From Prorocentrum cordatum (lineage: Eukaryota), in assembly GCA_963575745.1 (NCBI GenBank), contig CAUYUJ010000303.1:310001-374000 (forward strand): 64,000 bases of DNA, read 5' to 3'. Positions 4,753-22,508 of the stretch are shown here, one piece after another (positions within the stretch are counted from its first letter, which is position 1; every line of letters starts with the position of its first letter). The translations under genes were made by a program, and so were the position numbers. The notes under the pieces are model-generated. The model was not told the DNA's origin. It did no database searches and saw only the letters and a program-made list of their open reading frames with translations.

Positions 4753-5037
4753 ACTTTAAACGGAGAAGGTTAAAGGCGAGATGTATATCGAGCATGCACC
4801 GCTGCCGTGCCTGGCTCAAGCCGGGCCCGGCGTAATATGTGATTGTGCCTCACCGAGGCGCACGATTCGTATCTGAGATCGGAAAATACCTTTTCCATTG
4901 ACGATGCCTATTCTATCCTTTACTCCAGATCCCATGCTTCGTCTTGCTCTCTTGCTCATGCGATATGAGCCAAAGCTTGGGATATGGGAACGCCTAAGGC
5001 GTAACATATATCTAAGCTTACCAGCGCGATTTCGACT
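4753..5037 (+). repeat. 5' LTR
   Basis: ACTTTAAACGGAG...GATTTCGACT; differs from the 3' LTR at 2 positions by eye. Confidence 0.95.
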
Positions 5038-8000
5038 TGGTAGCGGAGCTGGCTACACTCTCGTGTGGCTGGCTCTCGCTCTAATACCAGTTATCCACGG
5101 CACAACTTGGTGGACTACTACCACGGTGGAATACCATGTTGCGCCGGCTCTGCGAGGAGCGGAGTCAGTCCGCGATCGAGCTAGCGGGGCAACCCGCGAG
5201 CTCGAGACGCTCTCTCTCACTTCACTGCGCCACTACACTCCAGACTTCCACCAGATGCCAATCGGCAACTCGATCGAGAACGTGGTCACCCTGCGGGGCT
5301 ACCCGCAGAGGGGCCACCTGCATCCCATGCCGGTCAGACGCCTCACGGCTACCACGCCCGAGCCTGACAAACCACAGCCTAAACCAATCACCGAAGCCGA
5401 GATGCACATGCACTGGATTAAGATAACTATCTTCGGCATTTTATGGGTGATATTGGGATGTGCTGTGGGCTACATGCGGCAAGGGATGGACGACACGCGT
5501 ACTACCGGCCCTTCATGGGACCCAGCCGGTACTACGCCCTTTCGCGAATACGTTCGCGAAGTACATGCATGGATAAACGCAACGAGCGGCAATATGACGC
5601 CACCTCAGCAAGCTGCAGCACTACAACGTGGCCTTCAAGGCCTTGCTCGTCGCATCGCCATGCAGGTCCCCTCCCAGATCATCAACTATGGTGTTACCGT
5701 CAACGGACAACCAACGGATGCAGTTACTTACATACTGTACCTATTGAGCACCAAATTTGAGAATCTGGAAGAAGAGCGCCAGCTCAACTCTGGCACTGCC
5801 CTTATCGACTTCCGCGTCGAAAGGGGCGAACGAATCGACTCAGTGTTAGCTCGATTCGAGATGGCCCGTGACGAGGCTAACTCTGTTGGCTTTGTCATCC
5901 CCAACTTTCAGATCCTAACGCTGATCCTTTTCAGAGCGTTAGGCGTTGGCGCGTCACGAGCCCAACACCTGCTGGAGCCCTTTAACCATCAGATGCCCAG
6001 GACACAAGCAGACTACGATAGGCTGCTGACCAGGATGAGGAACTACGGGCATGTTGCCGAACGCTCTCCTGGCAACATTGCGGGCATCTTCACAGGGCAT
6101 CACTCACATGCAGGTGTCTACGCCACGACTGCGGGGTCACCCGCTGGTCCTGGCGAGCCAAGTCCCTGGGCTGACTCAGCCGATATGCCCAACGAGGCCA
6201 CTACCCTCTTAGGGCAGACTGGCCAGGCATCAGCAGAGGCAGCGGAGGCGAACGCCTGGTCGAACTACACGCCGGGCGCCGCCTACACTGCAAGCCCGCC
6301 CTCGGGCACAACCCTCTGGGGCCAAGCGGAGTCATCCGCTCAAGGGTCTCAGCCACCCTCCCCGTTTGAATCTGGCACTGACACCGATACCTCATCTGAC
6401 GGTGATCACAATGGCATAGTCTCTGCTGGTAATGACTATCCAGCCGATGACACTCACCTTTCTGAACAACAAAGAGCGGAAGCCGCTTTTATGGCTTATC
6501 GCAAATCAAAACGCCGTTGGAGGCGCTTCATGAAGAAACCGGTCAGAAAAGTGAGACGTGCAGTACGCCGACATTTCAAACGATATGGAAAGGGTCGTGG
6601 CAAAGGGGGTCGCAGACGCCGTATGCATGGTAGGGGTATTACTGCTTTCCTCACGTCCTTAACTGACATAGTTTTTGAAGAAGTTCTTATCGGAGGTAAA
6701 GGTCGGGGTCATAGGCGGACCTCTGGTAAGGGAAAAGGGCGGAGGGGCAACCCTAGAGACGCTTCTGGCAACGTTATGAAGTGTCATACATGCGGTAGTA
6801 CAGAACATTTACGCGATCATTGCCCGGAGGGGAAAGGAAAGGGATCCGTACATTTGGCTCAAAACTCTTTTATGGACGACATAGACTATATTGACTACGA
6901 GTTTTACATCAACCCAGAAGCGGCTCCCGCCGCGGGCTCCTCCACGTACTACGTGATGGCCCGCTACGCTGATGTGACCGTAGCCTTGGAAGAGTACGCG
7001 GTGAACCTCTTCGACGAGTTCCACGGTTGGGACGAGGTCGACGAGACCGCGTTCAATGCTTGGTTCGGTCTTACAGCGGGGCCACCCGCCGGCGACGAGA
7101 TCTCCGAAGCGGAGACCGCCCCGGCGACCGAGGAGGAGCTCGCCGCCGCGCTGGCACCGCAGGTGATTGGCATGCCGTTGCTGCCAGATCCTCCGCGAGC
7201 CGGCTCGGAAGTGGGAGACGCTGATGACGAAATGCGGGGCCATCCCGCTTACTCTGACTCCGAAGAGGACTATAAGGACATGCTCCGAGAGCAGGTCGCA
7301 GAAGCAATCCAGCTCCTGAGTGCGCCAGCATACCAGCAGATAACCATGAACGGTTTACTGTCGCGCCCAGGGGCCGCAATGTTGCGTCCATACCTGGATT
7401 CGGACATGTCGGCACCACAGATGCTGACAGCACTCCAGATTTTAGCGGGGTCACCCGCCGAAGAGGCGCCAGCCGTAACAGCGGGGCCACCCGCTTGGTC
7501 TATGGAGGTATTCATGCAGGGCTGCGACCAAATGGACCTTAACAACCTCACGATGGAGCAGTTAACCGACATCGGGTACTTTAACAGCCCGCATCAGCAC
7601 GTATTCATGGTCCAGGACAGCTCAGAGGACTCGGAGGACAGGCGCTACGCAAAGAAGGACAGACAACCATCGCCACCCCGAGACCCAGAGCACGGTCGCG
7701 AAGACGAAAGGCCCATGGAACGTGGCAGTGCGTCAGCGGGGCCATCCCGCAGGAGGAGCCGTTCAGCTCCACGACGTCCCACACATGATGCATCAGGCTA
7801 CCCGTGCAGCACGGAGCACTCCGTAGGTGTATCCTCTCAGTACGTGCCGGAGTGGTACATCAATTGGTACCCCGGCTACTCGATGGAGGTTATCCGCCAC
7901 TGGTGGTCCAAAGAGTATTGCGCCAAACGGGACGAATCTGGCATGATAATACGTACCAAGGGTGGTAAGACTAAAACGCCAGAGGCTTGGGACCGAAGGA

Positions 8001-8944
8001 CCAAGAAACAGGAGATCATCAACGATCGCAAGACATACAGAAAACAAGTATGTCAATGCGAGCCCTTCAAGGGTCACATGCGCAGCTGTCCAATGGACCG
8101 CCCCTCCAGAAGCCCTCATCATGGTGAGACCCCTTGGAATTGGTCTCACGGAGATGACGCTGGCAACGTCCACGATCCTAATAAAAGGGTTCCTGGAGGA
8201 GGAAAGCGCATCACTGAAGCCGATCGCGTCCCTATGACCGAGGAGGATGCCAATGCGGTCAGGGAAAATTGGGAACAGCTTCCCAGAGACCATCGCCTCA
8301 AGGAATGGAACCGCCGATTCCATGAAGAGGCGGGGTCACCCGCAGAATCCAGCGGAGAAGCGGGGTCACCCGCAGAGCCCAGCGGAGAAGCGGGGTCACC
8401 CGCAGATGCTGCGCCAGCCGCTGGGTCAGCGGACGACGAGTGGATAGCTGTTGCCTCTGTCGCCGGATCCGCCGCCGGTACTGACCAAACCGAACTGAAT
8501 GAAGAATGGGCGGCGGAAGACGGCTCAGAGAATCCATTCCCTGATGGATGCGCCTGCTGGTACTACAGCTCCTCGGCACAGAAATGGTTCTGCACGAGGG
8601 TAATTTGCCGCCATGAAAATGGCAAGTACAAGTTGGCCATAAAGAATAATGCCGACATCGACCAGATGAGGCAGATCATTCATGATCATGGCCAGCCAGA
8701 AGGCCTTCCGAAAGACCCTCCTGGTCCACAGCCAGGCAAGGGCTCTGCGGGGCCACCCTTAAAGCGGCGTCAGCTGCAGCAGCGGGGACACCCGCAGGAC
8801 CAGGAGCCGATTCCTCATCTCCACCTTCTCCTGCGAAGAGGAACCCTTCTAAGAGCCCCGAAGGCACGCCGGGGCGTGTTAAGGCCAGAGGGATCGCCAA
8901 GGAAGAGGACCCTGAGCAGGAAGAGCCTGCCGGCCCGTCCGTGA
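4898..8944 (+). CDS. Retrotransposon gag-like polyprotein segment with CCHC zinc knuckle
   Basis: CHTCGSTEHLRDHC (CX2CX4HX4C) at 6782-6823 after a basic RG-rich tract; gag-like GPSWDP...FREYVREVHAW near 5505. The true start is probably downstream of the LTR/PBS, and a frameshift is likely near 8760. Confidence 0.8.
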   Translation: MTMPILSFTPDPMLRLALLLMRYEPKLGIWERLRRNIYLSLPARFRLGSGAGYTLVWLALALIPVIHGTTWWTTTTVEYHVAPALRGAESVRDRASGATRELETLSLTSLRHYTPDFHQMPIGNSIENVVTLRGYPQRGHLHPMPVRRLTATTPEPDKPQPKPITEAEMHMHWIKITIFGILWVILGCAVGYMRQGMDDTRTTGPSWDPAGTTPFREYVREVHAWINATSGNMTPPQQAAALQRGLQGLARRIAMQVPSQIINYGVTVNGQPTDAVTYILYLLSTKFENLEEERQLNSGTALIDFRVERGERIDSVLARFEMARDEANSVGFVIPNFQILTLILFRALGVGASRAQHLLEPFNHQMPRTQADYDRLLTRMRNYGHVAERSPGNIAGIFTGHHSHAGVYATTAGSPAGPGEPSPWADSADMPNEATTLLGQTGQASAEAAEANAWSNYTPGAAYTASPPSGTTLWGQAESSAQGSQPPSPFESGTDTDTSSDGDHNGIVSAGNDYPADDTHLSEQQRAEAAFMAYRKSKRRWRRFMKKPVRKVRRAVRRHFKRYGKGRGKGGRRRRMHGRGITAFLTSLTDIVFEEVLIGGKGRGHRRTSGKGKGRRGNPRDASGNVMKCHTCGSTEHLRDHCPEGKGKGSVHLAQNSFMDDIDYIDYEFYINPEAAPAAGSSTYYVMARYADVTVALEEYAVNLFDEFHGWDEVDETAFNAWFGLTAGPPAGDEISEAETAPATEEELAAALAPQVIGMPLLPDPPRAGSEVGDADDEMRGHPAYSDSEEDYKDMLREQVAEAIQLLSAPAYQQITMNGLLSRPGAAMLRPYLDSDMSAPQMLTALQILAGSPAEEAPAVTAGPPAWSMEVFMQGCDQMDLNNLTMEQLTDIGYFNSPHQHVFMVQDSSEDSEDRRYAKKDRQPSPPRDPEHGREDERPMERGSASAGPSRRRSRSAPRRPTHDASGYPCSTEHSVGVSSQYVPEWYINWYPGYSMEVIRHWWSKEYCAKRDESGMIIRTKGGKTKTPEAWDRRTKKQEIINDRKTYRKQVCQCEPFKGHMRSCPMDRPSRSPHHGETPWNWSHGDDAGNVHDPNKRVPGGGKRITEADRVPMTEEDANAVRENWEQLPRDHRLKEWNRRFHEEAGSPAESSGEAGSPAEPSGEAGSPADAAPAAGSADDEWIAVASVAGSAAGTDQTELNEEWAAEDGSENPFPDGCACWYYSSSAQKWFCTRVICRHENGKYKLAIKNNADIDQMRQIIHDHGQPEGLPKDPPGPQPGKGSAGPPLKRRQLQQRGHPQDQEPIPHLHLLLRRGTLLRAPKARRGVLRPEGSPRKRTLSRKSLPARP
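5038..5049 (+). promoter_or_regulatory. Primer-binding site TGGTAGCGGAGC (initiator tRNA-Met-like)
   Basis: Begins with TGG (complement of CCA) immediately after the LTR and resembles known iMet PBS sequences (TGGTATCAGAGC, TGGTAGCAGAG). Confidence 0.8.
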
Positions 8945-10419
8945 CGGAGAGGAGGAAGGCTTTCGCTGGACCATCAACCCCGATGCCACCAGCTGCTCAA
9001 GGCGACGTTAAGGAAGAAGATCGTGATCAGCCTAAGGCAGCTTTCCGAGGTGGCTGGGCTCCAACTCTGCATCAGCCGCGCCTTGCACCACGACCAGGCT
9101 CGGCACGCATGAAAGCACAGCCGAAGCCCGAGGCTGGGATGAGGTCGGTGCGGGCAGAGGCAGTCGCCAAGGCTAAGGAGGACAAGGGCCCTGCGGGGCC
9201 ACCCGCTAAAGCGGCGCCAGCCGCAGCAGCGGGGACACCCGCAGAAGGCACTCTCTCAAGAGAAGAACGCTTTAGAGCCCTCAAGGAATTTGGTGACCAA
9301 CAGAAACTAGCCGACGATGCGGTGGCAGCCCAAGATCACCAGCACTCTGGTGCAAGATCATCCACTGGAGCTGCCTCGGCAGCCGCAAGCTTTGCGGGGC
9401 CACCCGTTAAAGCGGCGCCAGCCGCAGTAGCGGGGCCACCCGTTAAAGCGGCGCCAGCCGCAGCAGCGGGGTCACCCGCAAGTTGGCAACCAGTGATGTC
9501 TGTCCTCAGGAACATCCCTCTGGGAGCCATTGAATATTGGCAAGGCATTGAAGGCAAAGGCCCAAAACGCACCATAAACCCACGAGTCACTCGAGATGAT
9601 ACAGATCGATACGAGGTCATTAATTGTCCTGTTCGTCGTAACTTCGAGTGCCGTAACAACTGGGAACGTGAACAACAAACCGTGGGAAATATGCTGCGTG
9701 ATAGGCCGCCATTGCGAGTCGCGCAGCACAGGGCAGAGCTCATGAAGGTCATGGAGAGGTTCGGCACGGATCCGACTCTGCCGCGCGACGGGCAAATGAC
9801 CAAGGTGTCAATATGGTTCTCTACAGCCCTACGCCAGAGTCCGTATTGGAAGGATGGATTCAGCCGACACTTCGAAAAGATTAGCACTTTCGATCCATGC
9901 GATGGCTGGGTTGTTGTTGACGATTTGCTGACAAACTGGACTGAAAATGATCAGTGGAAAGGCTATCGTGAAATGCACAAGGTGCTGATCAAGGGCAGGC
10001 CCCACACGTCATACGTGTATTGGGTGCTGCTAAACTGCTGTGAGATGATTGATAACCACGGCATGCAGAAGGGCAGGCTCCAGATGAAGTGCGTTGAAGA
10101 CAGTATGCTGCTGCCTCCCAGGTTCCGACCAACGGCACGCAGGCCACAGTACTTCATCAGAGCCACTAACGGCCACAGCAGTCCAGGCATCCACTGTCCC
10201 GAATCGCTTTATAAGCCGATCACAACATGGATGAAAGAACCAGACGACCCAGTATATTTCATCCACGGGACACAGTGGGAATATGTCAAGGACATCCTTG
10301 CTAATGGCCTTTCATGCCTCGCACAGGACAACCCTAAAAGACAGGGGGGGGCGCCAATTTGTACACGGCTGCCCCTACCTTCTGGGCGACCCGAGGATTC
10401 AATCGGGCATCCGTCCTGA
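8941..10419 (+). CDS. Polyprotein segment containing the N-terminal two-thirds of a Tpt1/KptA domain
   Basis: STALRQ...DGWVVVDDLL...KGRL...IRATNGHS...FIHGT...ILANGLS. Confidence 0.8.
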   Translation: MTERRKAFAGPSTPMPPAAQGDVKEEDRDQPKAAFRGGWAPTLHQPRLAPRPGSARMKAQPKPEAGMRSVRAEAVAKAKEDKGPAGPPAKAAPAAAAGTPAEGTLSREERFRALKEFGDQQKLADDAVAAQDHQHSGARSSTGAASAAASFAGPPVKAAPAAVAGPPVKAAPAAAAGSPASWQPVMSVLRNIPLGAIEYWQGIEGKGPKRTINPRVTRDDTDRYEVINCPVRRNFECRNNWEREQQTVGNMLRDRPPLRVAQHRAELMKVMERFGTDPTLPRDGQMTKVSIWFSTALRQSPYWKDGFSRHFEKISTFDPCDGWVVVDDLLTNWTENDQWKGYREMHKVLIKGRPHTSYVYWVLLNCCEMIDNHGMQKGRLQMKCVEDSMLLPPRFRPTARRPQYFIRATNGHSSPGIHCPESLYKPITTWMKEPDDPVYFIHGTQWEYVKDILANGLSCLAQDNPKRQGGAPICTRLPLPSGRPEDSIGHPS

Positions 10420-10560
10420 CTCGGAGGTGCTCATATTCTGCAGCATCAACAAGATGCTGTCCAGTGGCTTTACCCTATGGAGGTCAGCAAATGACATCGT
10501 CATGACACGGGGCCACGACGGCCGTATACCGCCCGATCATATCCTCCAGATTGTGAGCAT
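9800..10560 (+). CDS. TPT1: RNA 2'-phosphotransferase (Tpt1/KptA) domain, split by a frameshift near the G8 run 10344-10351
   Basis: Family motifs occur in order: LR(H>Q), DGWV, KxR, IRAxxGHS, HGT, GLS. The next frame continues RQFVH, SGIRPDSEVLIF, RSANDIVMTRGHDGRIPPDHI. Confidence 0.85.
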
Positions 10561-13500
10561 TGCGAAATATCGGGTCGGTGAAGCCTGGAGCAATCCGCTG
10601 GCTTATGACAAGTCGCGGAGGCGGGGCCAACCCGCGGACAGGATTCGCACCGATGACTACCTGCCACTTAAATTATGTGACAGAACTCTGCGTCTGATGG
10701 AAGATCACGCCATGTACCTAAAGGGCTGGTCTAAGACGGACGGTCGTCCATTTAACTTGATCATGACCGAACAAGATGTTGCTCCACGACCGTACCTCAC
10801 ACAGACAGTCCTCATGATAAGTGCCCAGGAAGACGAGGTCATGCCTGAAGCGGGGCCACCCGCAGGTGCGGGGACACCCGCGGCAGACACCCCGGATGGT
10901 TCATGGCAGCAAGTGGTCACACCAGTAGCGACGGTAGCATCTCCTTGGAGGCCGGACCAGCAGACATGGGTCCAGGCCCTCAACAGCTACTTGTCACCAG
11001 CCGACGTTTCTGGACTGACCGATCAGCTATACCGTGCTGACCCGTGGGCAGTGCATACAGGTATCCAAGATGCACGGCAGAGGAACCTGCGTACCCTTGC
11101 GGGGCCACCAGGCGTCCTAGGACCACAGCCACAGCGCCCTCCGCAGCAGGCTGGAGGCGCGAGGTTTGTCCCTATGGGCGGCTCCGATGGTGGCTCGCCG
11201 TTCCGGACTCCGCCGTCTGAGACGAGCGAGAACAGCTTGTGGCAAAGACTCCAGGCGATTCGCGGAAATCCAGCACTCGCGGCAGCACTCCAAGCAACCA
11301 CTCCCTTTGGCACTCCGAGGGGTAGTGAAGGAGGAGCAGCTGCGGGGTCACCCGCTGGGCGAACGCCTGCGGAGCCACCCGCACATGCGGGGCCACCCGC
11401 TGACGGACAGCAAGGTTCAGACTACGAACGTCGGGCAGCCAACCTAAGAGCACAGGCTACTTTTCTGCAGCAACAAGCTGATAGAGTGCCCAGCCTGTTG
11501 CGGAACCGCAACATAGATGTTACGAATCATGGCGACTTTCGGCCTCTCTGGAGCTGGACTTCTGAAGATGCTCCAAATGCTGATCCCACGAATCCATATC
11601 GACAGGTGTTTATTCCAGGAATAGCATCACACCCGATATATGGATGGGACAATCACGGTCCAGCAGAGGCGCAGGCCATGGACGCGCCGATGTACCCGGA
11701 GTACTACGCGCAGATGAATAACACCCCTATGATTGCGGGGCCACCTGCGAACGAATACACTCGGAATCTAGCCAATGAGATGTTTCGTTTGCAGTTTACA
11801 CGAGCGGTCGATGCGCAGTCTATGCCGCACTACGCCTACATGCCCACGCCGACGGACCCCGAGACCGTAGTTCAGCCAGCTGGTCTCGCGGTGCCAGCCG
11901 CTATGGGCAGCATGCCAGACTACATCCGCGACGTGCACAACACGCAGCAAGCGATACTGGCATCTAGGCAGCAGGCTCGGGACAACACTAGGCTGCGCCA
12001 ACAACGCGCGATCCAGAGAAGGATTGAGCGCGAGACCCAAGCGGGGACACCCGCAGAAGCGGGGCCACCCGCTGAACGGCCAGACAGACGGCCGCCACCG
12101 ACGCCATATCGGGAGGGCGAAACCACTTTCGAGCGCCAAGCTCGGACTCGCCCTGACGTGCCTGCTCCAGTCATTTCAGACTACAACTTCACACAGTGCC
12201 CAATCTGCATGGACAACTACGAGATGGGCACTACAGTGTGGAGACTGGCGTGTGGGCACTTCTTTCACGATATATGCTGGATCGTTGCACAGCAGCACGT
12301 CCGCAATCAGCGGCCAGGTGCGCCGAATGAGGCCCCCTGCGCTGTATGTCGTGGGCCGGGCATAGTTATAGCACACTTCCCGTATGCTGGACAGCGCGAC
12401 GCTGAATCAGAACAAGCGCGCCAGCAGGAAAGGTACGCGGCAGATGCCCGGGAAATGCGTCGGCCACGTGAAGCAGTGGAGGCACTGGAGGCTCGAGCCG
12501 CACAATCGGCGGAGCCATCCGCACGTGCCCCAGCTGCACAGGCATACCCCTGGCCAGCGCCAGAGCAAGGCATTCAGATGCCAATCCTGCCTACGCTTCG
12601 AGCGCAGGAGCCCCCAGCTGCGGGGCCACCCGCTGAAGCGGCTCCCGCCGCACAAGCGGGGCCACCCGCTGAAGCGGCTCCCGCCGCACAAGCGGGGCCA
12701 CCCGCAAATGGACCTCCAAATCCAGGTTTCCTGAGGACAATGGAGGCCAACATCAGGCGGAGTGGCAGGAGCGGAGGCGGGACTCGATGGCCAACTGGAT
12801 CAGCCAGGACCTCGCGAGTGGCAAGCCCGGTCAGCGCCAGGAGCCGGGCAAGCGCTGAGAGCGCAGAGGCAGCCCAGTTCCATACCACATTCATGATCGA
12901 TACAGAGGGGCTGACCTACGCACGTGACGACACGGACACGCTGCCACCAGGAGGTGAATGGATGTCCACGCTATCTGCGAATTATTGGGTCCTTGAGCAG
13001 GAACCAATTACCGTGGAGGAGCGCCGCCAGTATGAGCAGATGTGGTGCACCGAGCTGACCATGAGTCAATGGGTTCTTGAACAACGCCTGTTGAAGGGTA
13101 CACTCGGATCGCAGATCACGTACCACACCAATGACCATGGGACAATCGCTCTGGCAGCGCGCAATGGGACATTCTTTCCTGACGAAGATGGTATGCCCTG
13201 CATCTCGTTCATGCTGGACATTGGTTCCAATGTGAATATCATTGGATCCAACACGGCGCGAACCTTCCAGGAGATTATGGCCAGGTTCAACTACCGACCT
13301 GCCATATGCACCCTGAGCAAGACCCTCTACATCAATGGTGTTGGTGAGGGCGCTGCGATATGTCGGAAGATGGGCAACTTCACGATCGGGGTACAATATG
13401 CCAATGAGGCGAGCCCCCGTATTGAGGAGTATGCCTCCAACATCGCAGAAGGCTCGGGTGCCAATCTCCCGGCCATCTGGGGCCTAGGAGCCATGGAGGC

Positions 13501-14239: not shown

Positions 14240-14440
14240 CGGGGGCAGGCGGGCGCGCCGGCGGCGCTCGCTTGCGAAGAGAAGCCGAATACCGGCCTCC
14301 TCGCTACATACGTTGGCCGCGCTGAGGCCCGAGAGGAAAAATATCATTCAAAATGTCTTGTCATCGAAGATATTCGCACAGCTTGCGCTGAACTCCGAAC
14401 CCGTGGATATATATGCGACCGGATTACCCATAATGAGGTA

Positions 14441-17400
14441 ATGACTTCAACTGGAACACAGTATTTGGGAAATTTGTTGGCAGGAGACTACAATATGTTG
14501 TGGGTGGCCACACCCTCTGATTGGTACGTTCGTACTCCAGGAAAGAGGGCGGGACCACACTATCAACGTATACAAAATCTCCTGATCAAAGCGCGTGCTC
14601 TGAGGATGCAGATTGTTATCCTGGGGCCACCCGGGTATTTCTGGAAACAGGGTCCGATCAAAGATGTTATCGAAGATTTGAAGCTAAGCATTATACGAAT
14701 GAGACTCTGTCATTTCGGTATCAAGTTTGACCGCTCCAGTAAATATCCCAGTGGTTCTTATATACAAGTTGCTACATCTTGTCCTCATATACCGATAAAC
14801 TTATGGAGATGTACTTGTGGCTCACACAAAGAGCATGATTTGGATTGGTATGGCCAAGATCAGCAACGTGCCGAGTTTCGGCATAAAACTTTGGCTATCA
14901 TTATTGCACGCTTCCTTGATCAACTCAATAAAGCCAACATGATCAGGAATGAGCGGAGTGCGGTACACCTCAGTGTGTGTACTCGCGTTGACAAAAAGGT
15001 AAGACACTACGTCCCATGCCCACAAAAGGGCCCTCAATGGGACCATGTTGTTCGTAGATTCACGACCGACCTGGACACGAATAAGATCGTTCAAGATATC
15101 AGAATCCAGGATCAGCCGACTGGGTACAATCATGTAGCTCCATTGCCTGATGGGGTTACAAACATCAGTACTCGGTTATACTGGGAACCTCCGGCTCCAG
15201 TTCTTCACGGCGACGGTGAGTCGCGAAGGCCACGCCCAAAGCGTGTGACGATCGTCGATGACGATCGATCTCCTCCCCCTTCGATTGAGCGTTGCCAAAC
15301 GCGACCCACCTACTTTCCTGAAATTCCGTCACTTCCTGACTTAACAGCGGATTCCTCCGCAGCGGATCTCTCCGCGGAAACTGCGTTGCCCACTGATGCC
15401 AGGATAAAACAGAAAGAAAAGCAGAAAGCTGACGAAGAGGCTGGCATCAAACCAAAGAAAATCCCGAAGAAAGTGGAAGACGGCAACGACGACTGTGGAG
15501 AGGACCTCAAAGGGCTTGACTGCTCCACATATTTCAACGACGTTCCTCTTGACGACTCGGACTCGGACAGCGAATCAGAGGACATCTTCATGATGTTACC
15601 GGCGGGGCAACCCGCTGACTCACATGCTGATGTCTTCTCGATGGTCCAGTCATTATGCTACGGCAGAAACAATCAAGTGGACATGCTTGAATTATGTGGG
15701 GGCAAGGGTGGTATATCCATATTAGCCTTCAAGAGGGGACTCTCGTCAGGCGGGAACCTTGACAAGATATCTATGGTTGACCTTGGAAACTCGGAAGTAC
15801 AAAGAGCAGTCCTCCACTACCTCAAGACTTGCTTTGTCAAGATCACGATTCTGCAGCCAAGCTGCAGAACTACTGGACTTCCTTCATACTTCAATGCACA
15901 GGTCAATCATGATACGTGGCTTAAACACCACAAAGAGGACCTGCCTCACATCACGTTCTGTGGAACAGTCGCTCTACTACAAGACGACCTAAGACGTTTC
16001 TTTCTTAGGGAACAACCAATGGGCACGTGGGTGGATGAGATCCAGCCATGGAAGGAACTGGCACAACGCAAGGTCACTTGCCAAACGATTATTGATCAAT
16101 GCACGACTGGTCTCAAAGATTCGTTTGGACAATATATTCGCAAGCCAACACAGATGATGGCAAACAAAGAAGAGTTGTTGGCACCTTTCAGAGGCAAGCG
16201 TTGTCCAGGTAATCATGTGCACGCCAATGCTTGCAATAAAGAATTAGCAAGGGCGGCACAGTATACTTGCAGAATGCAGTCGCTGATCGTTGACGTGGTG
16301 CAAATCGCCAAAGATCTGTTTGCTTACGGTCGCGACCCATTCGCGAATCGTGAACGCAGCTATGCGTCCGTAACAAACAGTGCTGGCTACGACTTGGACG
16401 ACACAACAATCCAGAGACACCCAAACGGAGAAATCCGACGACCACCACCTGGCGGTCTTGGGCGCCCTGGCTGTGTGGACAACAATTACAAGCAATCACC
16501 AAAGCACAGCAGGGATCCGAAAATGTGTCGGTGGTATGATGTTGAACCATACTATTGGGACTGTCCAAGCTGTAAGAAGGAATATCAGAAGAGTAATCCT
16601 CACCACACCAAGATATCTGGCCAATGCAGATTCGCCGAAAAATGGAAGCTGCCAGATAACTTTGGTCAGCCGCGCCCGGCGGGGCAAGCAGCTCCTGCGG
16701 CGCCGGCCGCGGAAGCGGCTCCAGCCGCAGAAGCGGCGCCAGCCGCAAAAGCGGCGCCGGCCGCGAGAGCGCGCATACGCGCGCCTAGGCCGCCACGGCC
16801 CGGTGAGGGCGATCCAACCGCAGGCGCCAGCAGTCATGACATCACCAGAGCCGAAGGGGCTAATGGTGGCAACACTGGCGCTGGCAGCTCTGACGATCAC
16901 CGTAGACTGCCGCAAGTGGCAGCAAGGCGCGGACGCATGGAAGGAGGTGATCCTCCACCGCCGCCGCAGCCTCCTGTAGAGCCGAGGCCAAGGCCAAGGC
17001 TTCCTGATTGGACTCGTTTCGATGTTCAGCTCAGCCTTCAAAACCTGCGCAGCTTTGACCCAGCTGTAGTGCAGCGAGAACTCCGCAAGCTTCACTTGAG
17101 ATGGTTTCATGCCAAGGAACCAAAGATGCGGATGATTCTAGCTAAGGTTGGTCTGGGCGAAACCCGTTTGAGTCTGATTAAGGGCATTTGCGACTCATGT
17201 AGAGAATGTCGTGCCTGGGACAAACCAGGCAACACAGTGATGCCATCTGTGTCACTGCCAGGACATTTCAACGAGGAAGTCGAATGTGCTCTTTTCTTTT
17301 ACAAACAGGAACATATTGTTTTTCACATCATCGACCGTTGTATTCGTTGGGCAGCTGGTACAGAGATCCCCGATAAGACTATGCACACTGTTCTCGATGC

Positions 17401-19132
17401 CTATCACACAACTTGGATGCAGCATGGCCCTGCCAAAGTCTTATACTCCGACGGGGAAGGAGCACTGAATAACGATACAGCAAAGGCCATCCTTAAATCC
17501 AAGGGAACAGAGCTTCGTATCCGAGCGCGTGGCCAACACGCCACGACTATCGAAGCTAGGAACGGCATCCTGCGACACCTCATACACGTGATGGGAGAAG
17601 AATTGAATAGATTGAATATTCCTCTGAATTTCACTCGTCTTTTACATGGAGCCATGTTTGCCAGCAGTGCATTTACCTTCTACAACGGAGCTTCTCAGTA
17701 TAATGCGTTATATGGCAGACAACCAGCTATGCTTCCCGATTTCCCTGTCTTGGATCATGATCAGTCTGCTGAATCATCAGATCACTCAAGGGAGGAGACA
17801 ATCAGGAGGGTTAGTCTGGAGGCAATCACGCAGGCCACTGCGGTTGCCAAGACAAACAGGGCTCTTCGTACGAAGACTACTGCTACGGGTGAATTTCACT
17901 ACCGAGAGGGAGATCTCGTGGACTATCATCGCCCGACCACCACGAAAGATGACTGGGGTGGATGGAGTGGTCCATACCCGGTCATCCGCAACGAACCTGA
18001 CCGGGGTCAAGTCATCGTGAAGGTCGGCAGTCGCGAAGTGCGAGTACAGTATCCTGACACACGACATACGCTGTACATCGAAGCACTGATGGTCCGCGAG
18101 ATAGGATCGGACAATACGGCCCTTCGGACAGTATTGGCCTTTATTGCCGGTCTGTCAGCGGGGAAGCCCGCCATGACTTTTGGATACTTACCAGCGAAAC
18201 AGGGCCGGCTGCAGATGACTGCTGCGAGCCGGCTTTCGCCTAAAGTGCACCTGGCTCTTCAGTATCTCATTCGCAACTATTTTCGCATTGAAAACGTTGT
18301 TGCCGTACGACTTGCCAAGAGCCTGACTAAGTTGCCTGCTGCACCCTATGCAGACAGCTGTACACTAGTGCACTATGATAATGATGTGACCCCTGGCTTT
18401 CATTATTATGAAGCTGATGGCACCGCCTTGAACATCTACGACATCACAGGATCTACACACTCACGTATCATCCAGTGTCTCAAATCCAAGAAGCCGCCTG
18501 CTGGATTCGACCGAGACCTCACTAAATTTGAGGAACTCGCTGATGGTCCACCACCAAGCGAGTCACCTCCAGCAGCTGCTCCTGAGCAGCCTCCTGCGGA
18601 GAATGGTGGTCGGCTCCCGACCATCATAGAGGAAACAGAAGAAGATCTGGATGCCTTTGTCTTAAAGTCGTGGTATGCTGAACTGATGGATGACAGAACA
18701 CTCTTTGAAGCTGACACAGAAGAAGTCATGCATACAGTTCCGACATACATGACAGACACACAGTGTGTGTTAGTCTCTACGACCTGTGAAGATGTGCAAG
18801 GCCACTTGCCGGAGCGGGGTCACCCGCCAGGATACGACATGGACACCTCTTACTACGTTCCTTTGTGCCCACGGATCCGGACAACAAATATGATCTGGAT
18901 TCCGACGAGCACGGGAAGTACATCGAGCTCTGCTTCACAGCAGACATGTCCAAAGTCGTCCTGTCCGAGCAGCAACACCGATTGCTGGATGACAGCAGCG
19001 TCACAACTATGCGAGTATACGTTAGTGCTGCCTCCAAACGTGCCGTGGTCGTCAAGGAAGACGATCTACTCACGAAGGCCGACATTCAAGCGAATCCGGT
19101 CAAAGTTTCCAAAGCCCTATACACATAATTGA
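14441..19132 (+). CDS. Polyprotein segment: C5-DNA-methyltransferase-like domain and integrase
   Basis: MTase-like motifs LELCGGKGG, QPSC, REQP, DQC..G..RKPT at about 15670-16300. Integrase HLRWFH..CDSCREC zinc finger, YSDGEG, IEARN and SH3-like GDLVDY..WSGP at about 17080-18060. Frameshift likely near 18800. Confidence 0.85.
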   Translation: MTSTGTQYLGNLLAGDYNMLWVATPSDWYVRTPGKRAGPHYQRIQNLLIKARALRMQIVILGPPGYFWKQGPIKDVIEDLKLSIIRMRLCHFGIKFDRSSKYPSGSYIQVATSCPHIPINLWRCTCGSHKEHDLDWYGQDQQRAEFRHKTLAIIIARFLDQLNKANMIRNERSAVHLSVCTRVDKKVRHYVPCPQKGPQWDHVVRRFTTDLDTNKIVQDIRIQDQPTGYNHVAPLPDGVTNISTRLYWEPPAPVLHGDGESRRPRPKRVTIVDDDRSPPPSIERCQTRPTYFPEIPSLPDLTADSSAADLSAETALPTDARIKQKEKQKADEEAGIKPKKIPKKVEDGNDDCGEDLKGLDCSTYFNDVPLDDSDSDSESEDIFMMLPAGQPADSHADVFSMVQSLCYGRNNQVDMLELCGGKGGISILAFKRGLSSGGNLDKISMVDLGNSEVQRAVLHYLKTCFVKITILQPSCRTTGLPSYFNAQVNHDTWLKHHKEDLPHITFCGTVALLQDDLRRFFLREQPMGTWVDEIQPWKELAQRKVTCQTIIDQCTTGLKDSFGQYIRKPTQMMANKEELLAPFRGKRCPGNHVHANACNKELARAAQYTCRMQSLIVDVVQIAKDLFAYGRDPFANRERSYASVTNSAGYDLDDTTIQRHPNGEIRRPPPGGLGRPGCVDNNYKQSPKHSRDPKMCRWYDVEPYYWDCPSCKKEYQKSNPHHTKISGQCRFAEKWKLPDNFGQPRPAGQAAPAAPAAEAAPAAEAAPAAKAAPAARARIRAPRPPRPGEGDPTAGASSHDITRAEGANGGNTGAGSSDDHRRLPQVAARRGRMEGGDPPPPPQPPVEPRPRPRLPDWTRFDVQLSLQNLRSFDPAVVQRELRKLHLRWFHAKEPKMRMILAKVGLGETRLSLIKGICDSCRECRAWDKPGNTVMPSVSLPGHFNEEVECALFFYKQEHIVFHIIDRCIRWAAGTEIPDKTMHTVLDAYHTTWMQHGPAKVLYSDGEGALNNDTAKAILKSKGTELRIRARGQHATTIEARNGILRHLIHVMGEELNRLNIPLNFTRLLHGAMFASSAFTFYNGASQYNALYGRQPAMLPDFPVLDHDQSAESSDHSREETIRRVSLEAITQATAVAKTNRALRTKTTATGEFHYREGDLVDYHRPTTTKDDWGGWSGPYPVIRNEPDRGQVIVKVGSREVRVQYPDTRHTLYIEALMVREIGSDNTALRTVLAFIAGLSAGKPAMTFGYLPAKQGRLQMTAASRLSPKVHLALQYLIRNYFRIENVVAVRLAKSLTKLPAAPYADSCTLVHYDNDVTPGFHYYEADGTALNIYDITGSTHSRIIQCLKSKKPPAGFDRDLTKFEELADGPPPSESPPAAAPEQPPAENGGRLPTIIEETEEDLDAFVLKSWYAELMDDRTLFEADTEEVMHTVPTYMTDTQCVLVSTTCEDVQGHLPERGHPPGYDMDTSYYVPLCPRIRTTNMIWIPTSTGSTSSSASQQTCPKSSCPSSNTDCWMTAASQLCEYTLVLPPNVPWSSRKTIYSRRPTFKRIRSKFPKPYTHN

Positions 19133-20835
19133 AGACTTGGCTTGACAACAAATGCTTCCAGATGACTGACTTGAACAAAGCGTCGAACACCATGACTTCA
19201 CGCTATGTATACAAATGGAAGTTTGTCAAGAACGAGAAGGGCGACATGGAACGGACGATCAGGTTACGCTTAGTACTCCGTGGCTTCATGGACATTGAAG
19301 CCTTCGATGTCGAAACCTTCTCTGGCACAGCAAGGAGGTCAAACCAGAGACTGCTCGCAAGTTCTGCTGCATGCAGCAAAGCTTGGATCATCGCTTCCCT
19401 GGACATCAACATGGCTTTCTTAAAGGGACTGACCTATAGTGAGCTCGCCGCGGCAACGGGTGAGAAAGAGCGTGTGGTGTGCTTCACACTACCTCCTGGG
19501 TCAGCAGCTGTCCTTCGTACACTGCCAGGCTTTGAGTCACATGACGAATCAAAGCACTGTCTTCGGCGTCTGAAGCCGGGGACGGGCACGAAGGATGCTC
19601 CCAGGGCATTCTCGTTGAAGCTCAGGTCCATCACTCGGAGCTTTGGACTACAGCCTACGTCATACGACGAAGAATTCGAGATGAGCCCAAACCTCTTGAC
19701 AGCCAAACACGTTGATGACATTAATATGACTGGGAAGGAAGATGCTATTGACAAGTATGTCAAGTGTGTTGAAGATACGTTTGGAAAGTGCAAACTGAAC
19801 AAGCACACATACACAAACTGTGCCGTTCGGTACAACAAGACCGATGATGGGAGCGTCACTCTCGATCAGGACGAATACATCAAACAGCTTCGTCCTATCA
19901 CACATCCAGAGCTCACAGGCGCTGATCCTGAGAGTAAAGCGACAAAGACGATTTCTGATATGTTCGTCAGTCTTCGCGACGCTCTAGCCTATGCGTTGAT
20001 TACGCAGGTATGGCTGATGGTCTATGTTGTCTCACTACAACGTATCCAGGAACCGACAAACATCCAGGTACGACGACTAAACGCGGTTACCAGGAAATTG
20101 CAGGCAGGTCCGAAGAAGATCGTATATCAAGCTATGACTCCAACAGGAGAAGTCGACCTGCATAGCGACTCTGGCTATCGTCGTCTCAACGGAGACGAAG
20201 ACGACGAAGTCAAAGGCTATGGTATCCGCGGGGCTAACCTGCTGAGGCGTGGCCACACGCAAGCGGGGAAACCCGTCGTGCACCTGGTGGACGCATACTG
20301 CAAGTCTCATCGACTGCACGTGCGTTCGAGCTACTCTGCGGAAACACTGGCAGCAGCCCACAACTTGGAAGACTGCTACCCGACCATTGTAACGCTCCAC
20401 GAGCTACACTCGGGACCATTGACCCGCACACAGTTAAAGAACATATTGGAAATGGGTGGTCTATGTATCAAAGTCACTCTGACTATTGCTGCCGAGTCCG
20501 TCTTCAAGTCTTTGTCTAGCAAAGATCTGAAGAAGCCCACAGAATGTACTCTGCTTGGGCACATCAGCTGGATCCGCCAGATGATGGAGCGCGGAATCGT
20601 TGAAAGCGTTCAATGGTGTGACACGCGGGATATGACTGCCGATGGTCATACCAAAGGTAGTATTGACCGCGCGTTGCTCCTACAAGTAATGGCCGGCCAG
20701 CAATCCTTCAAGCACGAGCTGAAGAAACATACACCGTATAGGGCGGGCAGGTCGTCTCAAGACGGTCCTGCCTCCCGAGCTAGCGGGGAAACCCGCATGC
20801 AGGTGCGCTTTAGTAGCGAGGAAACTCGCCGGTAG
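19129..20835 (+). CDS. Copia-type reverse transcriptase and RNase H
   Basis: SRYVYKWK, RLVLRGF, LDINMAFL, GTKDAPRAF, HVDD (19708-19719); RNase H SDS, SSYSAE, MTADGHTK. The coding sequence probably joins upstream through the frame of 18865..19128. Confidence 0.92.
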   Translation: MKTWLDNKCFQMTDLNKASNTMTSRYVYKWKFVKNEKGDMERTIRLRLVLRGFMDIEAFDVETFSGTARRSNQRLLASSAACSKAWIIASLDINMAFLKGLTYSELAAATGEKERVVCFTLPPGSAAVLRTLPGFESHDESKHCLRRLKPGTGTKDAPRAFSLKLRSITRSFGLQPTSYDEEFEMSPNLLTAKHVDDINMTGKEDAIDKYVKCVEDTFGKCKLNKHTYTNCAVRYNKTDDGSVTLDQDEYIKQLRPITHPELTGADPESKATKTISDMFVSLRDALAYALITQVWLMVYVVSLQRIQEPTNIQVRRLNAVTRKLQAGPKKIVYQAMTPTGEVDLHSDSGYRRLNGDEDDEVKGYGIRGANLLRRGHTQAGKPVVHLVDAYCKSHRLHVRSSYSAETLAAAHNLEDCYPTIVTLHELHSGPLTRTQLKNILEMGGLCIKVTLTIAAESVFKSLSSKDLKKPTECTLLGHISWIRQMMERGIVESVQWCDTRDMTADGHTKGSIDRALLLQVMAGQQSFKHELKKHTPYRAGRSSQDGPASRASGETRMQVRFSSEETRR

Positions 20836-20943
20836 CGAGGCTACTCGCGCGCCCTTACCTTGTAGGCAGCCGCTGTTGCCTAGTACTGTTTTTTTTTCCG
20901 CGTAATGTAGTAATGCGGTGCTCGCTCGTCTCCCCCCCCTCCG

Positions 20944-21228
20944 ACTTTAAACGGAGAAGGTTAAAGGCGAGATGTATATCGAGCATGCACCGCTGCCGTG
21001 CCTGGCTCAAGCCGGGCCCGGCCTAATATGTGATTGTGCCTCACCGAGGCGCACGATTCGTATCTGAGATCGGAAAATACCTTTTCCATTGACGATGCCT
21101 ATTCTATCCTTTACTCCAGATCCCATGCTTCGTCTTGCTCTCTTGCTCATGCGATATGAGCCAAAGCCTGGGATATGGGAACGCCTAAGGCGTAACATAT
21201 ATCTAAGCTTACCAGCGCGATTTCGACT
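20944..21228 (+). repeat. 3' LTR
   Basis: Direct repeat of 4753-5037. Confidence 0.95.
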
Positions 21229-21699
21229 ATGCAATGCGGGCGGTGCCACTGGGCCCTTCGGTGGGGCACTCTGTGGGGTCACTAGAAGTATAGGGGGCAA
21301 GTCCTCAAGAGCGTGACGGCATCTGTTTTTGAGGCCGCCCTCGTGGGCGCGCCTGAGCAACGCCCGTGCACTAGGATGTATATTCCCACCGCCCTCGTCT
21401 CTGGCGGTCGTGGTCATTGGATGTATCAGCCAGCCCACGGTACGGGCAGGGAACACTGGATCCACGCTGGCCAATGCTTGGGGTCCACCGTGCACGCCGC
21501 TGCACAGGGTGATTTGTGCATCACGCGATTTTGCTGTTTCTGAGCAGACCTACCGGGTGTCGCATCGGAAGCGCGAGGTACAGTCGGCTTCTCGGCCAGT
21601 GAGCCTGCGCGCCAGCGGCGAGGCTGCTTAAAAGATACCAAAGACCAGGCTCGCAGCCCCTCGCCAGCGCGGAACAAAAAAAGAGAGGGTAAAATCGTC

Positions 21700-22260
21700 G
21701 ATTTCCAATTGTTTTTTCAATGTTTTTCGCCTTCTCACGTTTTCCCTCTTCCAACCCTCGAAGATCGAGGATTTGGAAAAAAAGGGAATTCCCAGAATTG
21801 TTTTTTGTTTGAAAGTGGATTCCTACTCGGAGATCCCACACATCCCCTGACATCTGGCCGGTACCGCGCCTCCCAGGTTCCCGGAGGGGCCCCAAGACGC
21901 CCAAGGACAGCCCAAGACGACCCCAAGGAGCCCCCAGAACGTAAAGAACGGCCTGACACGTTCCCGCGCAGCCCGAGACACCCTTCCGACGGCTCTCCAG
22001 GCCTCCAGGAGGCCTCCAGAACCCCCAGGGAATCCGGAAGATCCCACACCCCTGAGGGGCCCGGCTAACAAAACCCGCGAGGCACAAACAAAAGACAGCG
22101 CCGAACAGTGCCGAGGAATTGGAAAAACATGGAATTGGAAAAACATAGAAGTCCCATAATTTTGGTTGTCCAAGTTTGGCTCCCGATCTACTCTTGCACA
22201 ACAGACCACAATTCAGACCACCCCCCTCACCTCCCACAAAAGAACCCAGGAAGCCTTTGA
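21700..22260. repeat. Dispersed repeat related to 620-1085
   Basis: Shared blocks CCGGTACCGCGCC, AACGTAAAGAACGGCC, GACGGCTCTCCAG and GGAGGCCTCCAGA. Confidence 0.7.
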
Positions 22261-22462: not shown

Positions 22463-22465
22463 TAC

Positions 22466-22506: not shown

Positions 22507-22508
<2 letters not shown>

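Follow-up and report, generated by a model that had tools for sequence, protein, structure and literature searches.

A recent, defective copy of a high-copy Ty1/Copia retrotransposon of Prorocentrum cordatum with Tpt1, RING-H2 and predicted C5-methyltransferase modules

Structure and boundaries of the element

The window analysed here is a stretch of 64,000 nucleotides from Prorocentrum cordatum (assembly GCA_963575745.1, contig CAUYUJ010000303.1, positions 310,001 to 374,000 of the forward strand), and this paper concerns the long terminal repeat (LTR) retrotransposon that occupies positions 4753-21228 of it. Next to gag and pol regions, the element encodes a Tpt1/KptA-like RNA 2'-phosphotransferase domain, a RING-H2 finger and a tandem pair of domains that are predicted to adopt the fold of C5-methyltransferases (the DNMT-like pair), here together called the cargo. 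The locus is a young insertion, with LTRs that differ at 2 of 285 positions, and it represents a high-copy family, the members of which generally hold the cargo. All features of the element described below lie on the + strand of the window.

The 5' LTR (4753-5037) and the 3' LTR (20944-21228) are each 285 nt long and 99.3% identical, with 2 mismatches, as found both by a repeat search and by self-BLAST, which is in agreement with the proposal of an earlier sequence-only reading that the insertion is young. Directly outside the LTRs the sequence ATGCA is present at 4748-4752 and again at 21229-21233, as read from the sequence, and a target duplication of 5 bp is usual for Copia elements. At the left junction the flank ends in GGTGATGCA and the LTR starts with ACTTTAAAC; at the right junction the LTR ends in TTTCGACT and the flank continues with ATGCAATGC. 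The stretch TGGTAGCGGAGC at 5038-5049 abuts the 5' LTR and is similar to a primer-binding site, possibly one for the 3' end of initiator tRNA-Met. A tRNA scan of the whole window gave zero tRNA genes, and no Rfam family was matched in it. Just upstream of the 3' LTR, the region 20836-20943 is pyrimidine-rich, with a T9 run at ~20891 that is followed by the C-rich tract ctcccccccctccg.

Self-BLAST of the element detected no further copies within the 64-kb window, and the only families of direct repeats of at least 60 nt in 3000-23000 were the LTRs and the linker repeats discussed below. Inside the element, the cargo is not flanked by LTR-like repeats.

The element can be assigned to the Ty1/Copia superfamily on the basis of its RVT_2 profile match (E 7.2e-12, 45.8 bits, cut-off 31.6), its LTRs and the 5-bp duplication. 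With 16.5 kb it is unusually large for an LTR element of the Copia type, as the sequence-only reading had it; 5-8 kb is usual for such elements. Five stop-to-stop reading frames cover the interior from 4877 to 20835: P0001 (frame 1, 4877-8944, 1355 aa), P0002 (frame 0, 8686-10419, 577 aa), P0003 (frame 1, 10235-14239, 1334 aa), P0004 (frame 1, 14240-19132, 1630 aa) and P0005 (frame 0, 19129-20835, 568 aa). Abutting or overlapping open reading frames (ORFs), all on the + strand, had been noted from the sequence and are indeed what is found. The first three frames are referred to below as ORF1 and the last two as ORF2, with the TGA codon at 14237 between them.

Copies and relatives

Relatives of the element were sought at the protein level with residues 30-780 of P0004 as HMMER query against 1.84 billion representative proteins. 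This yielded 1,228 matches with E<=1e-3, of which 578 reach 1e-10 and 105 reach 1e-30; they are mostly from aquatic assemblies and fall in two blocks of the query, residues 7-200 and 350-750. When 15 long matches were inspected with Pfam, five had RVT_2, three rve, one an integrase finger and one a RING, and seven were without a family. An RVT_2, rve or integrase finger is located 3' of the DNMT-like module in 7 of the 15, and in the relative P0064 the RING lies 5' of the module.

Three relatives are of special use for comparison. The protein P0064 (3,301 aa, on a 105-kb contig) has gag with a zinc knuckle (28% identity), RING, a protease-like region, domain 2 of the DNMT-like pair and RVT_2 in one ORF, and Tpt1 is absent from it. 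The protein P0193 (2,159 aa) aligns to 99% of the query at 51% identity and also has one ORF, with both DNMT-like domains, an integrase region and RVT_2. The third, L001, is a metagenome contig of 3,970 bp that is 70% identical in domain 1. It has a nonsense codon at its positions 2131-2133, where the window has a Cys (before YGRNN), and its positions 3000-3970 consist of a low-complexity repeat of GPLGPSW type that is unrelated to the element, indicating that this copy is decayed or chimeric. L001 was the one locus in metagenome contigs obtained in a related-locus search with a single protein, which gave none in viral contigs. A word-index protein search with the DNMT-like pair gave 3 matches.

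At the DNA level, part of positions 8000-17999 is found in 20 of the listed 24 public runs; these come from 15 studies and are mostly metagenomes of marine and freshwater plankton, together with coded organisms. The contigs of three DNA runs (X1, X2 and X9) cover 30 of 30 bins of 4500-21500. Word depth across the bins amounts to ~800-5,800 in X1, ~1,100-4,600 in X2 and ~20-89 in X9, and in all three the bins with Tpt1, RING and DNMT-like sequence differ from the RT bins by no more than about twofold; in X2, for example, depth is ~2600 for Tpt1, 2781 for RING, 3150-3740 for the DNMT-like pair and 4200-4545 for RT, although contig word depth is a coarse measure that cannot rank the parts of a gene. 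Deletion variants do occur and are minor, such as a joint of 7438 to 9193 that skips 1754 nt and has a depth of 25 in X1.

A nested insertion of the cargo is unlikely, because contigs cover all 30 bins, cargo included, in three DNA runs. The view of the sequence-only reading that the cargo is part of the element thus gains support from two sides: the complete coverage at similar word depth, and the recurrence of RING and DNMT-like module in the ORFs of distant relatives.

Modules of ORF1

The gag region, a capsid-like segment that ends in a zinc knuckle, extends over 5510-6838 and is 28-30% identical to residues 136-520 of P0064 (BLASTP E 5e-43, with agreement from tblastn). It possibly starts at MHMHW (5402). 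The knuckle itself, CX2CX4HX4C at 6782-6823, was located by its pattern, in keeping with the gag(CCHC) predicted at the 5' end, and gives a weak match to Pfam zf-CCHC (E 0.053, below the cut-off). Just 5' of the gag homology, at 5414-5473, a hydrophobic, helix-like stretch WIKITIFGILWVILGCAVGY occurs, and P0064 is likewise hydrophobic before gag.

Downstream of gag, at 6900-9700, are ~2.8 kb of coding sequence rich in linkers of AGxPA type in which Pfam recognised no family. For the stretch between gag and Tpt1 (P0001 residues 900-1275) the ESM Atlas gave nothing usable, and Pfam again no family. A few segments here bring to mind a small Tudor/SH3-like barrel, such as CACWYYSSSAQKWFCTRVICRHENGKYKLAIKN at 8500-8700 (P0001 ~1215-1260) and the Tudor-like CWYYSSSAQKWF...YKLAIKN, which are impressions that no tool supports.

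The Tpt1 domain extends over 9787-10513. Pfam PF01885 matches 9901-10323 with profile positions 28-124 (32.9 bits, cut-off 26), and positions 123-177 of the profile are matched at 10346-10513 in the next frame (23.2 bits), which substantiates the earlier assignment of a Tpt1 in the element. The C-terminal lobe also matches mammalian TRPT1 in the PDB (7yw3, E 1.4e-7), with FIRATNGHS, FIHGTQW and GRQFVH aligned to the corresponding TRPT1 motifs. The catalytic residues of Tpt1 are Arg-His-Arg-Arg, as established with the yeast and bacterial enzymes. Two of the Arg, one in FIRATNGHS and one in GRQFVH, can be aligned with TRPT1; for the His, the window has LRQ, a His-to-Gln change, versus LRH in 4 of 4 other copies. 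The element family shares with the cellular enzymes the profile range 28-177, the NAD-binding lobe of TRPT1 and the motifs LRH, R..GHS, HGT and GR..VH. It differs from them in that the domain forms part of a retrotransposon ORF, where it follows gag and precedes RING, that its N-lobe has extra insertions, and that the copy in the window has the Gln for His as well as a frameshift.

A word-index protein search with the Tpt1 domain gave 8 named matches, all from Prorocentrum cordatum (six at 91-95% identity, two at 77%). So far, the domain thus appears to be confined to the Prorocentrum cordatum copies, and P0064 does not have it. By comparison of sequences, the RING and the DNMT-like pair appear to be ancient features of the lineage. 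It follows that Tpt1, RING and DNMT-like pair are probably not one joint acquisition, because the latter two are old in the lineage and Tpt1 occurs only in the copies of Prorocentrum cordatum.

A RING-H2 finger (C3H2C3) at 12197-12349 had likewise been predicted, and three Pfam RING models pass their cut-offs here by 0.4 to 2.3 bits: zf-RING_11 with 29.3 bits (27), zf-C3HC4_2 with 28.8 (27) and zf-RING_2 with 27.7 (27.3). The ligand pattern is C-x2-C-x14-C-x-H-x2-H-x2-C-x20-C-x2-C, and a homologous RING is found in P0064 at 883-947 (E 2e-6). In the loop past the sixth ligand (12278-12283), most other copies have three more bases (G, then GT), which is an in-frame difference of one residue.

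The last module of ORF1 is a probable protease-like region at 13202-13639, with LDIGS at 13214-13228 and IWGLGAM at 13475-13495. It is 27% identical to residues 991-1129 of P0064 (E 6e-13). The protease that had been named here before was recognised by no tool, and the present assignment is made from its position, the D-I-G-S motif and the identity to P0064. In the ESM Atlas the region gave only unnamed clusters, and an AlphaFold model from a 6-row alignment was unusable (pLDDT 29.5).

The DNMT-like pair and the pol region

The first half of ORF2 encodes two domains with a predicted DNMT fold, a degenerate domain 1 at 14342-14965, with TPSDW and GPPG, and a motif-bearing domain 2 at 15677-16327. 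An AlphaFold model of the pair, based on a 64-row alignment, has pLDDT values mostly >90 over residues 9-217 and 436-666, with a disordered linker in between. In a Foldseek search against the PDB, the top matches of the model were DNMT2, DNMT3A/B/L, DNMT1 and M.HhaI (best E 6.9e-4), and an enzyme of HemK type followed at rank 9. Structural superposition with VIA-align gave, for domain 1 on M.HhaI (1svu_B), Z 11.1 with a root-mean-square deviation (rmsd) of 4.2 over 178 aligned residues, and for domain 2 (model residues 451-667) on DNMT3A (8tdr_A), Z 10.5 with rmsd 3.9 over 181. A fold search over 48,161 chains that is independent of Foldseek placed C5-methyltransferases at all of ranks 1-14, with Z from 10.5 to 8.9. 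The lead of the C5 enzymes in this search is modest, yet they occupy the first ranks consistently.

In the canonical C5 enzymes, motif I is the FxGxG glycine loop, motif IV contains the Pro-Cys nucleophile and motif VI is Glu-Asn-Val. The motifs of domain 2 are ELCGG (15689), QPSCR (15854), REQP (16007), DQCTTG (16094) and RKPTQ (16139). In the alignment of the family, E-L-C-G-G-x-G follows strand 1, a nearly invariant P-x-C follows strand 4, an invariant Glu in E-Q-P follows strand 5, and Q-C-x2-G and K-K-P-T are located beyond it; we take these places to be those of motifs I, IV, VI and VIII. At the corresponding places domain 1 has T-P-x-D-W and G-P-P-G, and therefore lacks the glycine loop, the Cys and the Glu. 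Directly 3' of domain 2, at 16526-16633, a Cys/His-rich finger CRWYD...CPSC...H..CRF is present, which phmmer against the stored matches found at the same place in dozens of relatives.

Comparison with L001 gave proportions of nonsynonymous and synonymous change (pN/pS) of 0.171/0.818 in domain 1 and 0.194/0.765 in domain 2. Since pN is far below pS in both, the two domains are under purifying selection. The module is best described, from its predicted fold, as a deeply diverged tandem of C5-methyltransferase folds of which one is degenerate and one motif-bearing. Of the single C5-methyltransferase that had been proposed from the sequence, the fold is retained (Z 11.1 and 10.5), as a tandem pair instead of a single domain and with no Pfam or PDB sequence profile that matches it.

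The arrangement is similar to that of DNMT3A and DNMT3L in that an inactive C5-methyltransferase fold stands beside a motif-bearing one, and DNMT3L (2pv0_B) is among the fold matches of domain 1 with Z 9.2. It is different in that the two domains of the element are in one polypeptide, ~230 residues apart, and in that they have only ~10% sequence identity to DNMT3 proteins. A predicted complex of domain 1 with domain 2 scored 0.12 against a mark of 0.34, which speaks neither for nor against binding.

The probable integrase (17093-17533) has a finger H-x4-H...C-x2-C at 17093-17209 and a core at 17303-17533, assigned by its pattern and a weak rve match; rve also occurs in the matching place, and also below the cut-off, in P0058, P0074 and P0042. 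The Copia-type reverse transcriptase (RT) recognised by RVT_2 extends over 19147-19929, with HVDD at 19708-19719. The end of pol (20116-20832) is probably RNase H-like, in view of its position and of the motifs YSAETLAA (20332) and TADGHTK (20635), of a kind known from Copia elements, and it is 71% identical to the end of P0193. Thus, in the order INT-RT-RH that had been read from the sequence, RT and the rve-like core upstream of it are found as described, and the RNase H was not matched by Pfam.

Reading frames and condition of the copy

One polyprotein of about 5,000 aa, as suggested from the sequence, is not what this copy encodes, since it has three frame changes and two in-frame stops, and the stop at 14237 is conserved in L001. 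The first frame change (1 to 0) is at ~8747-8760, inside a 61-nt unit (8737-8797) that aligns to a 62-nt paralogue (9183-9244) and is one base shorter. A -1 slippery site was considered here and rejected: there is no X XXY YYZ heptamer in the sequence, and loss of 1 nt in a repeat unit fits better.

The second frame change (0 to 1) lies inside Tpt1 and is due to one surplus G in a G8 run (10343-10350). In other copies base 10344 is left out, at depths of 1120.8 of 1120.8 in X2, 17.8 of 17.8 in X9 and 138.4 of 357.9 in X1. In view of its location in a homopolymer, this indel may be an assembly error. With the G run corrected, no stop occurs from Tpt1 through RING to the protease-like region.

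The third is a 1-nt deletion at 18868-18869, ahead of RT, where a T is missing outside any homopolymer run. Other copies have the extra T at 18868 (29.8 of 29.8 depth in X9, 306.3 of 1444.4 in X2, 64.1 of 386.2 in X1), and P0193 aligns in one frame up to 18868 and in the other from 18871. Correction at this point does not remove the in-frame TAA at 19126-19128, read from the sequence, and P0193 reads the same stretch as protein.

Gene models of Prorocentrum cordatum on different contigs join 7912 to 9745 (3 models) and 10122 to 13283/13295 (2 models), with GA..AG and GT..AG boundaries. The joins are treated here as introns introduced by the gene finder, and no DNA joint is listed there; they may also reflect real splicing of the element's RNA. 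These models are chimeras in which pieces of the element are spliced into host-like genes.

A candidate readthrough signal at the ORF1-ORF2 boundary

The in-frame TGA at 14237 is followed by CGG and forms, together with a conserved element of ~60 nt, a candidate readthrough signal (14237-14300) that was recognised by comparison with L001. That contig has an in-frame TGA at the corresponding place, directly before RGQ(A/V)GA. In the alignment of the two DNAs, TGACGGGGGCAGG and ~50 nt beyond it are conserved, and the upstream sequences cannot be aligned. Over the 35 codons that follow the stop, synonymous change relative to L001 is 0.38, and beyond them it is 0.69-0.82. The consensus fold of both sequences contains a 12-bp stem-loop (14245-14275) that begins 5 nt after the stop and has one compensatory pair, C-G to U-A; compared with shuffled sequences, the fold of L001 has a z of -3.18. 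In X2, an abundant variant with a joint of 14199 to 14236 and CCT (depth 577.4) keeps the TGA in frame.

As to the alternative of separate initiation, no Met is present between the TGA and domain 1 in the window; many predicted proteins of relatives have a Met start 11-50 residues before domain 1, and L001 has a Met 19 codons downstream of its TGA.

Taken together, these data suggest that the TGA at 14237 is not the result of decay and is a candidate for programmed readthrough between ORF1 and ORF2. The design of the family is probably one of two ORFs joined by readthrough, because the TGA is conserved with its context in L001. The UGA-CGG context is known to be leaky in alphaviruses and tobraviruses, and gag-pol readthrough is known from gammaretroviruses. 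The element is similar to these systems in that a structured element lies a few bases downstream of the UGA-CGG, between structural and replicative parts, and it differs from them in that the stop follows the protease region and not gag. Copia elements typically rely on one ORF, on frameshifting or on splicing, and we know of no case of readthrough among them.

A hairpin motif in the linkers

The motif GCGGG-N4-CCCGC occurs at 32 sites in the window versus 0.37 expected, and 31 of these are in the element, in the sense strand, between 5184 and 20796. Most of the sites in the element (27 of 31) read as Ala-Gly-x-Pro-Ala and are clustered in the linkers between the modules of ORF1. The remaining four do not: two (5184-5197 and 5293-5306) are upstream of the gag homology, and two (18814 and 20783) are in other frames. 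The codons of the motif are always GCG-GGG-xCA-CCC, although the rest of the element uses GCG, GGG and CCC at only 25%, 16% and 17% within the respective codon families. The sites have mutually unrelated flanks, and in 30 of 31 hairpins the loop is G-N-N-A. Thus, the hairpins appear to be constrained at least in part at the level of nucleic acid, because the codon set is fixed, the flanks are unrelated, four sites do not encode AGxPA, and the loops conform to G-N-N-A.

L001 has five such sites, with G·U or A-U as third stem pair, and in distant relatives the AGxPA peptide is scarce (14 in 101,324 residues). At four joints of structural variants, both ends are at or within ~12 nt of hairpin copies.

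Discussion

The locus is most reasonably regarded as a recent, now defective copy of a high-copy Ty1/Copia LTR retrotransposon with a two-frame design in which the cargo is an integral part, a reading to which we attach a probability of about 0.8. In this design, ORF1 would encode gag, the ~2.8 kb of linker-rich sequence, Tpt1, RING-H2 and the probable protease, and ORF2 would encode the tandem of C5-methyltransferase folds, the Cys/His finger, integrase, RT and RNase H. Occasional readthrough of UGA-CGG would yield an ORF1-ORF2 fusion and could set the ratio of structural to enzymatic products. Domain 2 may then methylate the cDNA or RNA of the element itself, with the degenerate domain 1 as its DNMT3L-like partner, and Tpt1 may strip 2'-phosphates from the ends of element RNA or cDNA, or cap these with ADP-ribose. 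The RING could recruit ubiquitination, directed against host factors or serving the traffic of particles, and the 31 GC-rich hairpins of the sense strand might function within the RNA, for instance during packaging or template switching.

Some observations weigh against this reading and should be considered jointly. The copy itself is defective, with three frame changes, the TAA at 19126 and, in Tpt1, LRQ for LRH, and the frame change at ~8750 is not seen corrected in the variant rows listed, so that it may be a trait of the family. The LTRs have the termini AC...CT, not TG...CA, and before the 3' LTR a purine-rich tract is absent, with the C-rich ctcccccccctccg in its place. The protease has no match in Pfam or the PDB, where phmmer gave only chance hits (E >1); the rve match of the integrase core at 17303-17533 is weak (E 0.012, 16.3 bits, below the cut-off of 32.6), and the RNase H was unmatched by Pfam. 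As for the DNMT-like pair, PF00145 was matched neither by pieces of the window nor by 22 family members in Pfam, the family profile finds no DNMT in the PDB, and phmmer of P0004 against the PDB was negative as well. The motifs of domain 2 are off-canon (P-x-C for P-C, E-Q-P for E-N-V), a target-recognition domain is not evident, with the Cys/His finger following domain 2 instead, and in the fold search short-chain dehydrogenases are close behind (Z 8.8 at rank 15 versus 10.5 at rank 1). The case for readthrough is built on a single relative, L001; P0064 is without a stop at the corresponding place, and the stem-loop of the window is no more stable than shuffled sequences (z -1.13). Finally, word depth is too coarse to rank parts of a gene, and the RNA run X20 (14 of 30 bins, 11 contigs, one metatranscriptome) does not show transcription, since the library may hold DNA.

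Whether the cargo belongs to a living element could be doubted on the ground that the copy is broken at several places, that Tpt1 is limited to the copies of Prorocentrum cordatum and missing from P0064, and that minor deletion variants such as 7438 to 9193 exist. The Tpt1, RING and DNMT-like segments would then be nested insertions, or host fragments captured in a dead element that was passively amplified. We consider this very improbable, as all modules are on one strand and in one reading path (Tpt1, RING and protease-like region stop-free after correction of the G run), direct repeats of at least 60 nt in 3000-23000 are solely LTRs and linker repeats, and the cargo has a word depth like that of RT in three runs. 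Moreover, the RING and the DNMT-like pair occur in the same order in relatives at 28-51% identity, pN is far under pS in both DNMT-like domains, and 4 of 4 further copies of Tpt1 retain LRH. That the locus is an assembly chimera of several repeats, for which the two 100-N gaps elsewhere in the window and the homopolymer location, as is common for assembly errors, of one of the three frame changes (G8, 10343-10350; the second is the missing T at 18868 outside any run, the third lies in a repeat unit at ~8750) might be adduced, is hardly credible: matched LTRs and an exact 5-bp duplication enclose the whole element, independent runs from 15 studies contain the sequence with contigs over every bin, and relatives share the order of the modules.

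The two-frame design and the function of the DNMT-like pair are more exposed to alternatives. The TGA at 14237 could be plain decay or mark the boundary of independently translated ORFs, with a family that has one ORF, or an ORF2 with its own initiation. The single ORF of P0064 across the corresponding region, the Met starts 11-50 residues ahead of domain 1 in many relatives, the Met 19 codons past the TGA in L001 and the unexceptional stem-loop of the window would all be in line with this, yet we regard it as unlikely. The stop, CGG and ~60 nt downstream are conserved where the upstream parts of window and L001 cannot be aligned, synonymous change is halved after the TGA, a stem pair covaries and the L001 stem-loop stands out from shuffled sequences (z -3.18), the window has no Met ahead of domain 1, and abundant X2 variants, such as that with the 14199 to 14236 joint, retain the TGA in frame. 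With respect to the pair, it is possible, if on the unlikely side, that it is not a DNA cytosine methyltransferase at all, and is instead an RNA m5C enzyme like DNMT2, a methyltransferase for another substrate, or a non-catalytic scaffold for integration or particle assembly. The lack of profile-level similarity to DNMTs, the non-canonical motifs without a target-recognition domain, the presence of DNMT2 chains among the best fold matches and the position of the pair directly upstream of the integrase in every long relative examined are compatible with such a role. On the other hand, the aligned members conserve in domain 2 the glycine loop, the Cys that follows strand 4 and the Glu that follows strand 5, and a scaffold would not need these; M.HhaI, DNMT3A and DNMT1 match equally well as DNMT2.

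Beyond the reading of the locus as a defective copy of a cargo-bearing Copia family, a more far-reaching scenario can be envisaged, which we consider rather improbable. In this scenario, marine protists would harbour a large, unrecognised Copia lineage with a cryptic pair of pseudo-enzyme and enzyme with C5-methyltransferase folds as a permanent component of pol. The pair would methylate the element's own cDNA, and the retrotransposons that are most abundant in dinoflagellates would thereby write the pervasive CG methylation of their hosts. One Prorocentrum family would have added a Tpt1 that heals RNA or cDNA ends or caps them with ADP-ribose, a UGA-CGG switch, and ~30 hairpins with GNNA loops, most of them translated as AGxPA linkers, that serve as RNA signals and as recombination sockets for the gain and loss of modules.

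Retrotransposons with DNMTs had been said by the sequence-only reading to be known from dinoflagellates. This is correct for LINE and DIRS elements of Symbiodinium, with a further case, of Gypsy type, in a charophyte; it does not extend to Copia, as the abundant Copia elements of Symbiodinium are stated, in the accessible part of that paper, to be without any DNMT domain (de Mendoza et al. 2018, PMC5890265). According to the same text, SymbioDIRS-Dnmt3, SymbioLINE-Dnmt and KnitGypsy-Dnmt3, two of them from dinoflagellates, are comparable to the present element in that a C5-methyltransferase lies within the pol frame and that methylation of the element's own cDNA is the proposed logic. Their DNMTs are recognised by Pfam and are of DNMT3 type or bacterial type, in elements of the DIRS, LINE and Gypsy kinds, as far as that text describes them (PMC5890265), whereas the element studied here is a Copia with a tandem that is invisible to profiles. 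A further difference is that its module is located between the protease region and the integrase.

A 2026 preprint of the same group lists the known DNMTs borne by transposable elements (Fernandez-Moreno et al., 10.64898/2026.05.21.726589). The EpiLTRs and DAM-LTRs described in the available portion of it resemble our element as LTR elements that stack several accessory domains directed at nucleic acid or chromatin; they differ in being chromovirus-like (Gypsy), in occurring in Cymbomonas and Euglena, and in having DAM, a DNMT4-like domain and a chromodomain. In that portion Copia, Tpt1 and RING have 0 occurrences each. The SmTCL elements of Symbiodinium microadriaticum resemble our element in being of the Copia type, from a dinoflagellate, recently expanded and up to ~10 kb long, with an integrase that precedes RT and RNase H (Chen et al. 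2018, PMC5776459). For SmTCL, the accessible text mentions RT, integrase, RNase H and LTRs and is silent on accessory domains. In the literature searched, with subscription-only papers, Repbase and Dfam outside the search, no report was found of a dinoflagellate LTR element with the present architecture or of a Tpt1/KptA domain in a retrotransposon.

Retrotransposons with methylation enzymes are rare, and they have been seen as evidence for manipulation of the host's epigenetic state by mobile elements. If the assignment at the level of fold is true, a dominant superfamily of dinoflagellates would carry a widespread methyltransferase-like module that has been overlooked since no profile detects it, and ideas on the writer of dinoflagellate CG methylation could be tested on a defined protein. 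A retrotransposon-borne Tpt1 would point to chemistry of 2'-phosphates or ADP-ribose on retroelement RNA. A conserved UGA-CGG readthrough signal, together with a hairpin of 14 nt that is for the most part translated as peptide linker, would be new devices of expression and architecture for the Copia superfamily. In practical terms, profiles made from these domains would improve the annotation of dinoflagellate genomes, where pieces of the element are now fused into host gene models.

Surroundings of the element

The window has a G+C content of ~0.6, in agreement with that of the Prorocentrum cordatum genome. Upstream of the element, 1289-2243 contains tandem arrays; those at 1289-1727 have periods of 53/81/134 nt, those at 1731-2043 periods of 11/105 nt. 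Downstream, a frame of 1,287 aa at 27549-31412 (+) contains a PIF1-like helicase (PF05970, E 1.8e-15, residues 592-735) in a region of strong G-over-C skew, and it may be part of a Helitron-type or other helicase-bearing element. Positive GC skew is sustained over 28000-42000 and reaches up to 0.44 at 38-42 kb. Further tandem arrays are located at 32170-33026 (period ~90 nt) and at 37684-40857 (periods of ~221 and 436 nt, with GGGCGG-rich heads).

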